Below, piece after piece: positions 42,071 to 48,384 of a DNA stretch of 64,000 nucleotides. A program made the position numbers and the translations under genes. Source of the stretch: an uncultured Bacteroidota bacterium. Its GTDB lineage: Bacteria; Bacteroidota; Bacteroidia; Bacteroidales; 4484-276. Location: contig CAJATL010000052.1 of NCBI GenBank assembly GCA_903944895.1, forward strand, positions 973-64,972. Direction: 5' to 3'. The notes beneath the pieces were generated by a model. It was not told the DNA's origin. It worked only from the letters and a program-made list of their open reading frames with translations, and ran no database searches. How positions within the stretch are numbered: the stretch's first letter is position 1; each line of letters starts with the position of its first letter.

Positions 42071-42587
42071 TGAGATTTTTCAAAAAAAAGGTTATTTTTT
42101 TACGTCCCAAAAGCAAACCCAACAGTCCGTCAGATGGCGGACTGTTGGGTTTCGGTTAATTAAAGCAGATGCATTTTCCGATTCGCAAACTCCGCATTCC
42201 TGACCCTTTCGCCAAACAGATTGATTGTATGCTGTGTATGAAATATTACGTCGCAGGCTAATTTGTCGCTCATCTTGTAAATAGGTAAGAATTTGTTTCA
42301 GGCTTACAGCCTGAATAAAGGGTTTCTGTTTTTTCTGCCCGGTGCGATGCCCCAGGTTAGGTTGTTGCTGCCCTTCAGGCAAATTGTCATTCAACATTCC
42401 TGAGTATTGGTAACCGGTTAAATTGTTTACCTCCGCCAGCTGGCGGGGAATTCGCCGTAGGCGATAAAGTATTGTAGAAAAAGTACATCCTCAGTTTAAT
42501 AATACCAGCCAGACTTCGGCGTGAGCTCAGACGAACGCTGGCGGATTAAAGAAATCAAGGGGGCTCAAGACTTTTAAATGTACAAAT

Positions 42588-42748
42588 CAATGTCGTTTAG
42601 TTAACAAATATAAAATGGAACGCGGATCAAACGGATCTGCCAGTTGGCGGACGCGGATTAAAACTGTTTATGATTCAAGAAATCCGCGAAAATCAGCGCT
42701 GCTTGCATCAGCGTTATCAGCGTTCAAATCCTTAACTTAATGACATTG
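42588..42748. mobile_element. 161-bp MITE with 18-bp imperfect terminal inverted repeats and a 10-bp target duplication
   Basis: caatgtcgtttagttaac (42588-42605) / cttaacttaatgacattg (42731-42748); ATGTACAAAT at both 42578-42587 and 42749-42758. Confidence 0.8.
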
Positions 42749-42955
42749 ATGTACAAATGTAAAACAACAAAAATCCAACGAAATTTCTGCGATGTTTTGG
42801 TTTGGTTGGAATTTATTTCAAATACTAAAGCATTATCTTTCAACATCATAAAAAATATTTTCCCTCCAATCACATTTTTTTCTTGCATGGTTTGGAATAT
42901 TTTATGCTACATTTGCCGCCACATTATCGAATTTCCTTTCGGTTGAAAGGTGTTT

Positions 42956-43063
42956 GATTTATAAAGAAGAGTGGAGAGATTAGGCTCGGTGAAACTCTAG
43001 CAACCTACAGGCTAACGCAAGGTGCTAATACCTAACCCCGCAAGTTGCGGGGGAATTATAAAC
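42956..43063 (+). ncRNA. SAM-I (S-box)-type riboswitch
   Basis: tttataAAGAAGAGTGGAGAGA.TAGGCTC.GTGAAACTCTAGCAACC...AAGGTGCTAATACC...hairpin...tataaa fits the S-box consensus; lies upstream of met genes and after a TACATTTG -7 box (~42908). Confidence 0.88.
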
Positions 43064-43079
43064 TAAACACATAAATAAC

Positions 43080-43205
43080 ATGACAACAGTTTTTTTTAGG
43101 TTTCTTACGTTTCGCGGGCTTTGGGCCAACGCGATGGTTTATTCTTTCCTGTCCCCGGGTCTTTCCTGCTCAACTTTTCACATGGCTATGCGAATGCGTG
43201 GCTAA
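43080..43205 (+). CDS. Putative 41-aa leader peptide with Met-rich C-terminus
   Basis: MTTVFFRFLTFRGLWANAMVYSFLSPGLSCSTFHMAMRMRG*; A-rich initiation region; stop codon inside a hairpin. Confidence 0.5.
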   Translation: MTTVFFRFLTFRGLWANAMVYSFLSPGLSCSTFHMAMRMRG

Positions 43206-43334
43206 TTCCTGAATTTTAGCCACGCTAACCGGACAACATCCGGCTTTTCATGCTGTTTCAGACCTTCGATGCAAGGTCATGAACCGGACAATTCCATTCA
43301 TTTTTCAAATTTTCACAACATCATCGTACATTGT

Positions 43335-46032
<2,698 letters not shown>

Positions 46033-46044
46033 CAAGCTGCAGTC

Positions 46045-47088
46045 ATGGGAAACAAACCTCAAGTCTATCATTTTCAAAACCCGTTTCCGCTTGAACTTGG
46101 CGGCAGTTTGCCGGGTATCGAAATCGCTTACCATACTTTTGGAAAGCTAAATGCCGATGCCGATAATGTTGTCTGGATTTGTCATGCCTTAACCGCCAAC
46201 TCCGACCCCAGCGAATGGTGGCCGGGGCTGGTGGGCGAAGGCCGCTTATTCGATCCGGAAAATCATTTTATCGTTTGCGCCAATATTTTAGGCTCGTGTT
46301 ACGGAACCACCGGCCCTTTGTCGGTTAATCCGGAAACCGGGCGGCCGTGGTACCATCAGTTTCCGAAAATCACCATCCGCGATATAGTCTCGGCACACGA
46401 AATTCTGAGGAAGCATCTCAAAATCCAGAAAATTAATACCCTCATTGGCGGCTCAATGGGCGGGCACCAGGCTTTGGAATGGGCCATTGAGAAACCTTTC
46501 CTTTTCGAAAACATCATTTTGCTTGCAACGAGCGCCAGTATTTCACCCTGGGCTATCGCTTTCAACCAATCGCAGCGGCTTGCCATCGAGGCCGACAGTA
46601 CCTACTTTGAAGGCTGGGCAAAAGGTGGCATGGCCGGACTAAAGGCCGCACGCGCAATTGCACTCCTGAGCTATCGTAACAACGAAGCCTATAATTTAAC
46701 CCAGGCTGACGATGATGTGAACAAAACGGCATTTTTCAGGGCGGTTACTTACCAAAACTACCAGGGAGATAAGTTACTGAAAAGGTTCAATGCCTATTCT
46801 TACCACCTCTTAACACGCGTCATGGACACCCACAACGCAGGCCGGAACCGGAACAGCATTGCCGAAGCCTTGCGGCGGGTAAGGGCTAAAACCCTTGTTG
46901 TGGCTATCACTTCCGACATTTTATTCCCGCCGGCAGATATGCGCGTTATTCATCAGAACATCCCCGGAAGTAGCTTTTATGAAATTAATTCGCCATACGG
47001 GCATGATGGTTTTCTTATCGAACATGAACAGTTAACAAGCGTTATTCAAAAATTTTATCAAATACAAAAACATGAAACAGCAGCTTAA
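46045..47088 (+). CDS. metX: Homoserine O-acetyltransferase
   Basis: CHALTA, WW.GLVG, GGSMGG nucleophile, SDILFP, GHDGFL. Confidence 0.93.
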   Translation: MGNKPQVYHFQNPFPLELGGSLPGIEIAYHTFGKLNADADNVVWICHALTANSDPSEWWPGLVGEGRLFDPENHFIVCANILGSCYGTTGPLSVNPETGRPWYHQFPKITIRDIVSAHEILRKHLKIQKINTLIGGSMGGHQALEWAIEKPFLFENIILLATSASISPWAIAFNQSQRLAIEADSTYFEGWAKGGMAGLKAARAIALLSYRNNEAYNLTQADDDVNKTAFFRAVTYQNYQGDKLLKRFNAYSYHLLTRVMDTHNAGRNRNSIAEALRRVRAKTLVVAITSDILFPPADMRVIHQNIPGSSFYEINSPYGHDGFLIEHEQLTSVIQKFYQIQKHETAA

Positions 47089-48256
47089 CATTGGGTTATT
47101 TGGGTTTGGTGTTGTGGGAAACGGGCTTTATGAAGTTTTACAGAAAAGCCAGACCGCACACGCCGAAATCAGGAAAATATGTGTAAAAAACCGCACAAAG
47201 CGCAGGCAGGCGCCTGAATCTCTTTTTTGTTTCGAACCATCGGAGATTTTAGATGATCCGGAAATTAACCTCGTCGTCGAACTGATTGATGATGCCGATG
47301 CAGCTTATGAAATCGTAAAATCTGCGCTTCTAAAAGGGAAAAGTGTGGTGTCGGGCAATAAAAAAATGCTTGCCGTTCATTTGCCCGAGTTAATCGACAT
47401 ACAGAACAAATACGGGGTGGGCCTGCTTTATGATGCTTCCGCCTGTGGCAGCATCCCGGTTATCCGCAACCTGGAGGAATATTACGACAACGATTTGCTG
47501 CAGAGCGTCACCGGAATCTTAAACGGAAGTTCCAACTATATTTTATCCAGGATGTTCAGCCAGAACCTCGATTACCGGGAAGCACTTTTCGGTGCCCAGG
47601 AACTGGGTTTTGCCGAAAGCGACCCTTTTTACGATGTCGAAGGGCTTGATGCGCTTTACAAACTGGTGATTATCACGGTTCATGCTTTTGGGGTTTACAT
47701 TGCTCCCGAACGGATTTTTCATTCAGGAATCTCTAAAATTTCCGAAAACGACATTGGCTTCGCGAAAGAAAAGGGCAGCAAAATAAAACTTGTGGCAAGG
47801 GTCCTCAAAACCGGGCCTGGCAAAATAAGCCTGTCGGTGTTGCCGATGTTTGTTAAACCCGAAAAATACATTTTTAATGTCGAAGACGAGTTTAACGGGG
47901 TGGTGATCAAAGGTGCATTTTACGATAAACAGTTTATGTTCGGGAAAGGTGCAGGCGGTTTTCCCACGGGTTCTGCCGTACTTTCCGACATCACGGCGCG
48001 GGGTTACAATTATCGGTATGAATATAAAAAGATGAAACAGCAACCTGATCTTAAGCTTGATAACGATCATGCTGTAAAAATTTATCTGCGTTTTACGGAT
48101 AAAAAGGACCTGGATATTTTTGGTTTCGAGAGCATCCTTGAACAGCACTATGCCGAAGGATTTAATTATGTAATTGGGAAAATCAGTCTTGAGGCGTTGT
48201 TCAAGGCCCGGCCTGAAATGAGCACGAAGGATATTTTTCTTGCGGAGATTTCCTAA
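47072..48256 (+). CDS. hom: Homoserine dehydrogenase
   Basis: GFGVVG, SGNKK, GSIPVI, GILNGSSNYIL, AQELGFAESDP, GKGAG..PTGSAV. Confidence 0.93.
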   Translation: MKQQLNIGLFGFGVVGNGLYEVLQKSQTAHAEIRKICVKNRTKRRQAPESLFCFEPSEILDDPEINLVVELIDDADAAYEIVKSALLKGKSVVSGNKKMLAVHLPELIDIQNKYGVGLLYDASACGSIPVIRNLEEYYDNDLLQSVTGILNGSSNYILSRMFSQNLDYREALFGAQELGFAESDPFYDVEGLDALYKLVIITVHAFGVYIAPERIFHSGISKISENDIGFAKEKGSKIKLVARVLKTGPGKISLSVLPMFVKPEKYIFNVEDEFNGVVIKGAFYDKQFMFGKGAGGFPTGSAVLSDITARGYNYRYEYKKMKQQPDLKLDNDHAVKIYLRFTDKKDLDIFGFESILEQHYAEGFNYVIGKISLEALFKARPEMSTKDIFLAEIS

Positions 48257-48311: not shown

Positions 48312-48384
48312 GCCACCTTAGCTCAGTTGGTAGAGCAGCGCATTCGTAATGCGCGGGTCGTGGGTTCAAGTCCCATGGGTGGCT
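48312..48384 (+). tRNA. tRNA-Thr(CGT)
   Basis: Acceptor GCCACCT/GGGTGGC, D arm AGCTCAGTTGGTAGAGC, anticodon arm GCGCA-TT-CGT-AA-TGCGC, T arm GTGGG-TTCAAGT-CCCAT. Confidence 0.96.

Follow-up and report, generated by a model that had tools for sequence, protein, structure and literature searches.

Relationship to known leader RNAs

S-box leaders of the Firmicutes, exemplified by those of Bacillus subtilis yitJ and metI, place an aptamer for S-adenosylmethionine (SAM) ahead of genes of the methionine/SAM regulon. The same aptamer family and the same kind of regulon were encountered in the DNA examined here, a stretch of 64,000 nucleotides from an uncultured Bacteroidota bacterium of the order Bacteroidales (GenBank assembly GCA_903944895.1, contig CAJATL010000052.1, positions 973 to 64,972; this whole stretch is referred to as the window), in which a SAM-I aptamer is followed by a short open reading frame (ORF) ending in clustered methionine (Met) codons and by an operon headed by an aspartate kinase gene. 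In contrast to the Firmicutes S-boxes, this leader has no terminator/antiterminator platform, its P1 helix is extended by A/U pairs and a start codon follows ~9–16 nt on. With a little better than even confidence, the locus is interpreted here as a two-sensor leader, in which the SAM-I aptamer gates translation of the Met-codon ORF and a ribosome parked on that ORF blocks premature, likely Rho-dependent, termination of transcription. One leader would probably read both SAM and methionine supply.

The classical attenuators trpL, hisL, thrL, leuL and pheL, as well as the Bacteroid-trp leader (RF01692), likewise consist of a short ORF with end-product codons abutting a hairpin that holds the stop codon. 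They differ from the arrangement described here in that methionine is the amino acid presumably sensed, no 2:3 antiterminator is present, and a canonical terminator is found at only 12/35 loci. To our knowledge, methionine is not among the amino acids classically known for leader-peptide attenuation, and riboswitch expression platforms in Bacteroidia, which translate without Shine–Dalgarno (SD) sequences, are poorly understood.

Several described leaders combine an RNA sensor or a stalled ribosome with an upstream ORF (uORF). The Salmonella mgtA leader joins a Mg2+-sensing RNA to the proline-codon uORF mgtL and to Rho (PMC12360218); in the accessible part of that article, it resembles the present locus in that translation speed at particular codons of a short ORF feeds into premature Rho termination. 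Ligand, aptamer and codons are different, and translation of the mgtA uORF refolds the RNA and thereby unmasks a Rho utilization (rut) site, of which nothing was seen here; in the window, both inputs report on one pathway, i.e. methionine and its product SAM. The uORFs of tnaC, speFL and cruR retain a ribosome at their 3′ end, by which a rut site is masked (PMC12360218). These leaders share with our proposal a ribosome hold at the 3′ end of the ORF, a spacer of ~100–200 nt and Rho as output, whereas their stalls require a small molecule acting together with a particular nascent peptide while the ribosome is at the stop codon, as opposed to Met codons at a variable distance from the stop.

B12 switches of Mycobacterium tuberculosis metE and ppe2 control uORFs (PMC11260477), and they and the SAM-II metA leader of Sinorhizobium meliloti (PMC9373788) are similar to the window in that the aptamer controls translation at an adjoining site, not at the main start, in front of methionine genes. 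The accessible portions of these two reports describe uORFs without a cluster of end-product codons, and for ppe2 termination–reinitiation (PMC11260477), as compared with a gap of 129 nt between stop codon and main start in the window. A transcriptome map of Bacteroides thetaiotaomicron, in the part available, mentions small ORFs ‘reminiscent of leader peptides’ in long 5′ untranslated regions (PMC7366714). Neither a Met-codon leader peptide nor a SAM riboswitch combined with such an ORF was found in the full-text literature searched, outside which most subscription journals lie, and absence from print is not proven by it.

The locus represents a new combination of known kinds, namely riboswitch and leader-peptide attenuation. 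If the interpretation is correct, it would provide the first Met-codon attenuator, a platform for SD-less translational riboswitches (an A/U-only extended P1 abutting an A-rich initiation region) and a natural two-input RNA device that joins an amino acid and an activated cofactor on one transcript. With dozens of families in one order, the group is large enough for covariation to be analysed and for reporters to be tried in a cultivable representative.

The SAM-I aptamer and its extended P1 helix

The following features were located at the 5′ side of the leader:
42956–43064, + strand: SAM-I (S-box) aptamer (RF00162, 71.1 bits against a gathering score of 44.4, E=1.2e-14, model positions 1–108)
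42950–43070, + strand: extended P1, formed by 42950–42964 with 43056–43070 (inverted repeat of 15 nt, 87% complementary, almost all A/U)

An earlier note on this DNA, made from the sequence alone, had recognized the aptamer, and the Rfam scan returned a full-model RF00162 match above the gathering score at this position, the single SAM-I match in the whole assembly (7.17 Mb, 424 contigs). Both its score and its position before methionine/SAM genes are those of a SAM-I riboswitch, for which SAM binding is predicted. The further claim that no terminator stands directly behind the aptamer was borne out by a scan of 42400–43700, in which no terminator-like site was detected between 43064 and 43229. 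With neither a terminator 3′ of P1 nor a conserved anti-P1 pairing, the locus does not conform to the terminator-type S-box platform.

The P1 helix was shown to continue for six pairs past the Rfam model (42950–42955 with 43065–43070), stopping 9 nt ahead of the ATG of the leader ORF. Across 48 leader-ORF loci (sampled as described below), the extension comprised a mean of 3.33 contiguous pairs, compared with 1.84 when partners were permuted, and the words that form it vary between loci with compensating changes. The mean G+C of the last nine aptamer bases was 0.8 at ORF-type loci (n=54), none at direct-start loci (n=5) and 2.5 at loci without a nearby ATG (n=40), while the canonical AGAT(A/G)A word was present at 4/54, 0/5 and 33/40 of these loci, respectively.

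Two alternative pairings were rejected as general features. An anti-P1 hairpin between the 3′ strand of P1 and the first ORF codons is visible at loci L006 and L009, with a mean z of 0.02 and z<–1.64 at 4/52 loci. An anti-aptamer pairing, represented in the window by a complementary pair of 17 nt (76%) between aptamer core and ORF body, gave a mean z of –0.15 over 48 loci, with z<–1.64 at six of them.

The leader ORF, its Met cluster and hairpin H1

Immediately downstream, three overlapping or adjoining elements were identified:
43080–43205, + strand: leader ORF of 41 codons, MTTVFF...STFHMAMRMRG-stop (ORF and translation)
43182–43196, + strand: Met cluster, in-frame ATG codons at 43182, 43188 and 43194 (codon positions)
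43196–43225, + strand: hairpin H1, perfect 10-bp stem, ΔG –15.8, with the last codons and the stop codon as 5′ arm (inverted-repeat search and fold)

The complete peptide of the leader ORF is MTTVFFRFLTFRGLWANAMVYSFLSPGLSCSTFHMAMRMRG-stop, which agrees with the 41-codon ORF ending H-M-A-M-R-M-R-G that had been read previously. Its start indeed lies behind P1, the one correction being trivial: the ATG was placed at 17 nt but is the 16th base past the aptamer, with 15 nt between. Three of the last eight codons specify Met, and a short ORF with clustered codons for the amino acid of the pathway thus precedes the operon. The kinase start, set by frame and relatives at 43335, is located 129 nt past the stop codon of the leader ORF, as against an expected ~130 nt.

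The arms of H1 (43196–43205 and 43216–43225; gcgtggctaa/ttagccacgc) pair without a mismatch (100% complementarity over 10 nt) across a 10-nt loop, exactly where the hairpin had been described, and H1 is present in minimum free energy and centroid folds alike. The upstream word TGGCTA (43183–43188), which had been suggested as a competing partner, pairs with the 3′ arm of H1 when a modelled ribosome sits on the stop codon. In addition, a 9-nt word, TCTTTCCTG, occurs twice in the pyrimidine-rich part of the leader ORF (43143–43151 and 43160–43168).

Conservation of Met-tailed ORFs behind SAM-I aptamers

To assess conservation, SAM-I matches were collected from 41 close relatives (10 genomes with a match), from an order sample of 151 genomes, one per family (54 matches in 47 genomes of 47 families), and from a phylum sample of 151 genomes (119 with a match). 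The leader ORF was present at 8/10 SAM-I loci of the close relatives. In the order sample, a leader ORF was defined as one of 15–149 codons with its ATG between –3 and +30 of the aptamer end, and the 54 matches comprised 34 with a leader ORF, four with the main gene starting there, seven with a shorter ORF and nine without an ATG.

Among the 34 leader ORFs of the order sample, the last ten codons contained at least one Met in 30, at least two in 19 and at least three in six. In mechanically defined ORFs of comparable length at these loci, at least two terminal Met were present in only 34/1090 cases (Fisher p=2e-18), which confirms that the Met-rich uORF is conserved behind SAM riboswitches in Bacteroidales, as the earlier note had asked to be checked. 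When ATG triplets were counted over the same 30 nt in shifted frames, each of the other two frames gave 1/34. Typical tails are MRMR, MCMR, MPMMPMCMH, MSMRMQG, MCMQMQD and MPMPMQA.

The ORFs range from 18 to 114 codons in length and their bodies are unrelated between loci; this variable length, together with the unconserved body, points to a constraint on frame and Met codons. In the two genus members L005 and L007, the ORF has undergone several amino-acid changes without a frameshift or stop, and at L006 a frame of 114 codons is open throughout and ends in a Met cluster. Frame and regulatory codons are therefore kept while the peptide body drifts, as in an attenuator. The same ORF architecture was observed in other genera and families, and the genes behind the leader ORFs, where checked, all belong to the methionine pathway (MetY-like, MetX-like, HTS, HcyBio or aspartate kinase).

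These comparisons of sequence indicate that the leader ORF is not a chance occurrence. The opposite reading, in which the riboswitch uses some unseen platform and ORF and hairpin are incidental, can draw on the abundance of short ORFs in A/T-rich leaders and on the 15/34 order-sample ORFs with fewer than two terminal Met; it is hardly credible in view of the Fisher test and the frame specificity, the persistence of the arrangement across families and at 11/11 aptamer-bearing kinase loci (see below), and the 114-codon frame of L006 that stays open to its Met cluster.

A second reading grants the ORF a function as an adaptor, whereby, in an organism that does not use SD sequences, riboswitch-controlled translation shields the leader from Rho, and the terminal ATG triplets owe their conservation to the RNA, through pairing in H1 or GCATGC-type palindromes, and not to methionine sensing. 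Met codons indeed often lie in a hairpin arm (e.g. at L003, L032 and L055), the codon following Met begins with C in 37/62 cases (R 20, P 8, H 6 and Q 3), and a riboswitch-controlled uORF without regulatory codons is known from the M. tuberculosis ppe2 leader, as far as the accessible part of that report goes (PMC11260477). Nevertheless, ATG triplets are in frame in 19/34 ORFs as opposed to 1/34 per other frame, despite variable ORF length; the codons between the Met codons vary (GCT, TCC, TGT, CCT and GAT); all such ORFs examined precede Met-pathway genes; and the same Met pattern persists where no riboswitch exists. An adaptor ORF of this kind is considered quite improbable.

The arrest of TnaC responds to tryptophan and that of SpeFL to ornithine, and by analogy the M-x-M-x-M C-terminus might stall on free methionine or SAM in the exit tunnel and shield a Rho site. 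The conserved part is C-terminal, beside the stop codon, as it is in tnaC and speFL according to the accessible text (PMC12360218), and a spacer of ~90–130 nt without a strong terminator lies behind the ORF. Arrest peptides, however, need fixed spacing, while the distance from Met cluster to stop ranges from 0 to ~9 codons and Met alone is conserved; furthermore, the logic would be inverted, as a ligand-induced stall would turn a biosynthetic operon on at high methionine. Nascent-peptide arrest is, in our assessment, very improbable, and reading of the Met codons by the ribosome is preferred.

At L010, a GC-rich insertion of ~200 nt with long inverted repeats separates leader ORF and kinase (+150 to +470 past the aptamer), and the kinase frame of this locus is open for 94 codons only. 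A pattern scan of metagenomes for close homologues yielded at least 120 stretches; among those listed, none had a SAM-I aptamer on the same strand, and these were all chance matches.

Met-cluster ORFs without a riboswitch

Relatives of the kinase were analysed at 70 loci. A SAM-I aptamer was detected upstream by nhmmer at 11 of these, all 11 of which (two being the same DNA as L005 and L007) carry a Met-tailed ORF. From the 59 aptamer-less kinase loci, 55 could be examined, the other four having too little upstream DNA, and a small ORF with a terminal Met cluster was present at 45 of the 55. About 42 of these 45 represent one conserved type, ending in ...SMRTMSMFMQ or ...MLSTSMFMR and located ~95–105 nt ahead of the kinase. 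An Rfam scan of 20 of these loci at the gathering threshold gave no match.

An alignment of 26 loci of this conserved type revealed that insertions and deletions in the ORF body occur in multiples of three, that the block of Met codons, stop codon and H1 is almost invariant, and that a hairpin within the ORF shows compensating changes. Since Met-cluster ORFs occur at loci without a riboswitch, they are predicted to form a regulatory module of their own, which in the lineage of the window stands behind a riboswitch. This stand-alone occurrence argues for a putative Met sensor that is read by the ribosome.

The loci of this type (L062–L129; e.g. L062:681–909) are from metagenome-assembled genomes (MAGs) with Prolixibacteraceae, Mariniphaga and Tangfeifania in their titles, and a block of ~60 nt around the stop codon is nearly invariant among them. 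A promoter-like TAnnTTTG box lies ~10 nt ahead of the ORF ATG, and the arrangement suggests that the riboswitch-less ORF may be nearly leaderless. The ORF-internal hairpin (alignment columns 57–72) encodes Q-Q-P-C-C; QQPCC words were also observed in a Cys/Met-rich leader ORF behind a SAM-I aptamer in another order (L185).

Translation initiation region and proposed gating by SAM

Between aptamer and ORF, one further element was noted:
43065–43079, + strand: A-rich linker and initiation region of the leader ORF, with A at –3, –6 and –13

Start contexts were compared at 39 loci (35 Met ORFs and four loci with direct metH starts), where the frequency of A was 0.64 at –3, 0.69 at –6, 0.77 at –12 and 0.72 at –13, and where AAA was the second codon in 20/39. 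The distance from aptamer to ATG at these loci is 2–22 nt, mostly 13–15 nt. In the accessible part of Baez et al. (2019), A–3, A–6, A–12 and A–13 are positive determinants of initiation in Flavobacterium johnsoniae, the ribosomes of which ignore SD sequences (PMC6847099), and the A positions at the leader ATG match these determinants (PMC6847099).

At 4/54 order-sample loci, the ATG at this position is the start of the main gene itself, which in all four cases is MetH-like (S-methyl_trans and Pterin_bind domains); from these metH loci it is apparent that bacteria of this order employ the aptamer to act on a start codon in that position. We infer that the liganded, extended P1 would cover –10 to –24 of the initiation region and exclude the small ribosomal subunit. 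For some SAM-I switches, Barrick and Breaker (2007) locate the ribosome binding site within the 3′ strand of P1. Gating of leader translation by SAM, as previously proposed, is plausible on the strength of the Bacteroidia-like initiation signature, an extended A/U P1 ending 9 nt from the ATG and the metH starts.

Downstream hairpins and possible transcription termination

The spacer between leader ORF and kinase contains the following elements:
43229–43249, + strand: hairpin H2, CCGGA-caaca-TCCGG followed by CTTTTC, weak intrinsic-terminator-like (stem 43229–43243)
43261–43278, + strand: hairpin H3, GACCTT-cgatgc-AAGGTC (fold)
43227–43236 and 43282–43291, + strand: direct repeat AACCGGACAA, 10 nt exact (repeat search)

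A hairpin at the stop codon, corresponding to H1, was shown to be enriched: the median energy was –12.6 kcal/mol at 35 Met-ORF loci, compared with –9.45 for 70 random anchors (p=7e-4) and –7.85 for 70 shuffled sequences, and the best hairpin reached –10 or lower at 29/35 Met-ORF loci versus 34/70 random anchors and 30/70 shuffles. H2 is kept in three genus members and is the sole terminator-like site in the leader, while H3 shows one compensating double change in the genus (GGCCTT...AAGGCC in L007). Through the repeat AACCGGACAA, the 3′ arm of H2 has two possible partners, one on either side of it. In related genera, only a hairpin of the downstream type, with a pyrimidine-rich loop, was seen.

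The ribosome was modelled by masking its footprint on the second or third Met codon or on the stop codon before folding. With the A site on the second or third Met codon, the ribosome in this model overlies the 5′ arm of H1 partly or entirely. The proposal that stalling selects between RNA folds received no support: masked folds alter H1 only, no alternative downstream structure appears, and no conserved anti-P1 or anti-aptamer pairing was found across loci. A classical 2:3 antiterminator and a sequestered kinase start, considered as candidates, are both absent from the ribosome-masked folds. Mutually exclusive 1:2, 2:3 and 3:4 pairings with a terminator were not found; H1 is 1:2-like and H2 terminator-like, with no 2:3 pairing between them.

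This set of hairpins bears on whether the leader might contain two serial checkpoints, with an independent riboswitch followed by an ORF, H1 as 1:2 pause hairpin and H2 as terminator, after the manner of trpL and hisL and without Rho or gating by SAM. The trp leader carries its regulatory codons inside the 5′ arm of the first hairpin or immediately ahead of it, and its stop codon at the apex of that hairpin, a geometry that fits the window. H2 with its CTTTTC is, moreover, the only terminator-like site in the leader and conserved in the genus; strict terminator-like sites follow 12/35 Met ORFs where ~1 is expected; and the riboswitch-less version shows that the ORF module can work alone. Against this, H2 forms in every modelled state of the ribosome in the absence of a 2:3 antiterminator, and a ribosome on the stop codon reaches only ~43218, short of H2. 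No strict terminator is present at 23/35 loci, and the riboswitch-less type has merely TTTCC past H1. RNA contigs read through H2 (see below), and, without a terminator behind the aptamer, the ATG is the only output left to the riboswitch. Serial checkpoints are accordingly regarded as clearly unlikely, and the coupled two-sensor leader is retained as the preferred interpretation.

With respect to Rho, the genome was found to encode this factor (PF07497, 120.4 bits, 592-codon open frame on contig C286). The C/G ratio of the leader is 1.4–1.9 over 43145–43372, relative to a background 90th percentile of 1.59, and three hairpins fall in this region. A Rho-dependent output is a conjecture: Rho as the termination route is held tentatively, with somewhat less than even confidence, and H2 as the termination route is rather unlikely.

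Proposed mechanism

At high SAM, the closed P1 would occupy the 5′ half of the site at which ribosomes land without an SD sequence, leaving the leader ORF untranslated. When SAM is low and charged elongator tRNA-Met is scarce, the ribosome would stall at the Met codons on top of H1, as the codon-level conservation suggests, and this ribosome, parked at the ORF end with a queue behind it, could cover the pyrimidine-rich leader. In the least certain step, the covered leader would escape premature termination ahead of the kinase gene. High SAM (no translation) or ample Met (fast passage and release) would each leave a bare leader and an early end of transcription, which would most likely depend on Rho and to which the weak terminator-like H2 might contribute.

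Of the two-input control suggested in the earlier note, the two sensors are well supported by the comparative evidence; their coupling and the output we infer, and selection of a fold by the stalled ribosome was not retained. Several observations weigh against the mechanism as formulated. In the model, a ribosome on the first Met codon leaves H1 intact, and the masked folds melt H1 only, with H2, H3 and an open, A/U-rich kinase start unchanged. Strict terminator-like sites follow only 12/35 Met ORFs, so that a single output device is not visibly shared among the Met-ORF loci, and the C-over-G bias across loci is mild (1.16 in ORFs and 1.23 in spacers versus 0.89 in gene bodies). Moreover, 15 of the 34 order-sample leader ORFs carry fewer than two terminal Met, and the frequent location of Met codons in a hairpin arm, often with a C following, means that part of the Met-codon conservation could reflect a constraint at the RNA level.

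A broader generalization appears to us evenly balanced between right and wrong. It would define a Bacteroidales-wide class of Met-sensing leader peptides with an M-x-M-x-M tail and a stop-codon hairpin, occurring alone in Prolixibacteraceae-like lineages and behind a SAM-I aptamer with an extended A/U P1 gate in Lentimicrobiaceae-like lineages and many other families, where it would act as an AND gate (low SAM and low charged tRNA-Met) with Rho, and not a terminator/antiterminator pair, as output.

Coverage by RNA-library contigs

Contigs from RNA libraries (four runs, two studies) of a relative ~96–97% identical were compared with the window over 42700–44000. Two contigs, 409 and 419 nt long, extend in one piece over 42935–43344 and 42934–43352, respectively, and span the 5′ hairpin, aptamer, ORF, H1, H2 and H3 up to the kinase start, although neither ends nor strand nor origin from one transcript can be read from such contigs. 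Listed differences from the window were located in the ORF body (43076–43168), at 43217 (3′ arm of H1) and past H2; none falls in 43169–43216, the interval that holds the Met cluster together with the 5′ arm of H1. Some contig pieces end at 43243 or at 43166–43185, and the kinase body (43360–44000) is without cover, observations that carry no weight on attenuation.

Operon and candidate promoter

The genes and 5′ elements flanking the leader are as follows:
42891–42915, + strand: candidate promoter, TTTG at 42891–42894 and TAcaTTTG at 42908–42915 (read from sequence)
42935–42950, + strand: hairpin CCTTTC-ggtt-GAAAGG, putative 5′ end of leader RNA (stem-loop listing)
43335–44756, + strand: aspartate kinase, first gene of the regulated operon (Pfam AA_kinase 4.6e-45 and ACT domains)
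44734–46032, + strand: O-acetylhomoserine sulfhydrylase-like gene, metY (Pfam Cys_Met_Meta_PP)
46045–47088, + strand: alpha/beta hydrolase, homoserine acetyltransferase-like, metX (Pfam match)
47072–48256, + strand: homoserine dehydrogenase, hom (Pfam match)

The order behind the leader is thus aspartate kinase–metY–metX–hom, all genes of methionine biosynthesis, with a tRNA at 48312–48384 after hom (Rfam scan) and a gene with a Por_Secre_tail domain (Pfam) upstream of the leader. The closest public relatives of the kinase are from MAGs titled Lentimicrobiaceae (93%) and ‘uncultured Bacteroidetes’ (92%), and with the Por_Secre_tail domain they point to a Bacteroidota of Bacteroidales type.

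The –33/–7 promoter consensus of Bacteroidia is TTTG/TAnnTTTG, and the sequence at 42891–42915 is presumed on this basis to be a promoter. The RNA-library contigs start ~19 nt downstream of this candidate. The 6-bp hairpin at 42935–42950 coincides with the start (42934/42935) of contigs from three runs, and may represent a 5′-terminal stabilizing stem of the leader RNA.

Distribution of other leader types

The Met-tailed type was shown to be concentrated in the order of the window. In other orders of the same class, an ATG-type leader was present at 7 of 40 loci examined among the 42 matches listed, and three of these seven end Met- or Cys-rich (L180, ...SMRMRMPMSCFSYMCA; L185, ...MQQPCCMCICCPCC; L200, ...YMCCCCR), while most of the remaining loci have an AGATAAG-type P1 and no ATG. 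Inspection of the best 30 loci of the phylum sample, 28 of them from other classes, did not reveal a terminal Met cluster. Most of these best 30 (L131–L160) possess a conserved GGTATG...CATACC hairpin directly past the aptamer, representing a different platform. Canonical terminator-type S-boxes with an AGATAAG-type P1 were also encountered within this order and class (L002, L013, L014 and L038), where they constitute a separate type.

Within the genome of the window itself, no match to Bacteroid-trp (RF01692) was obtained, and a heuristic search for leader ORFs rich in Trp, His, Thr, Phe or Cys codons gave no candidate ahead of a recognizable biosynthetic gene. The corresponding scan for other Met leaders gave one weak lead, before a CysN-like ORF: a 14-codon ORF with M-R-M-M (C168:34433–34477, + strand), a possible sulfur leader, lies 196 nt ahead of a 635-codon ORF, which we take from its N-terminus to resemble sulfate adenylyltransferase subunit 1. 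Small ORFs of the form MEEW...GMMEEW were also observed on contigs C17, C26, C266, C349 and C411, and have the appearance of a dispersed repeat family.

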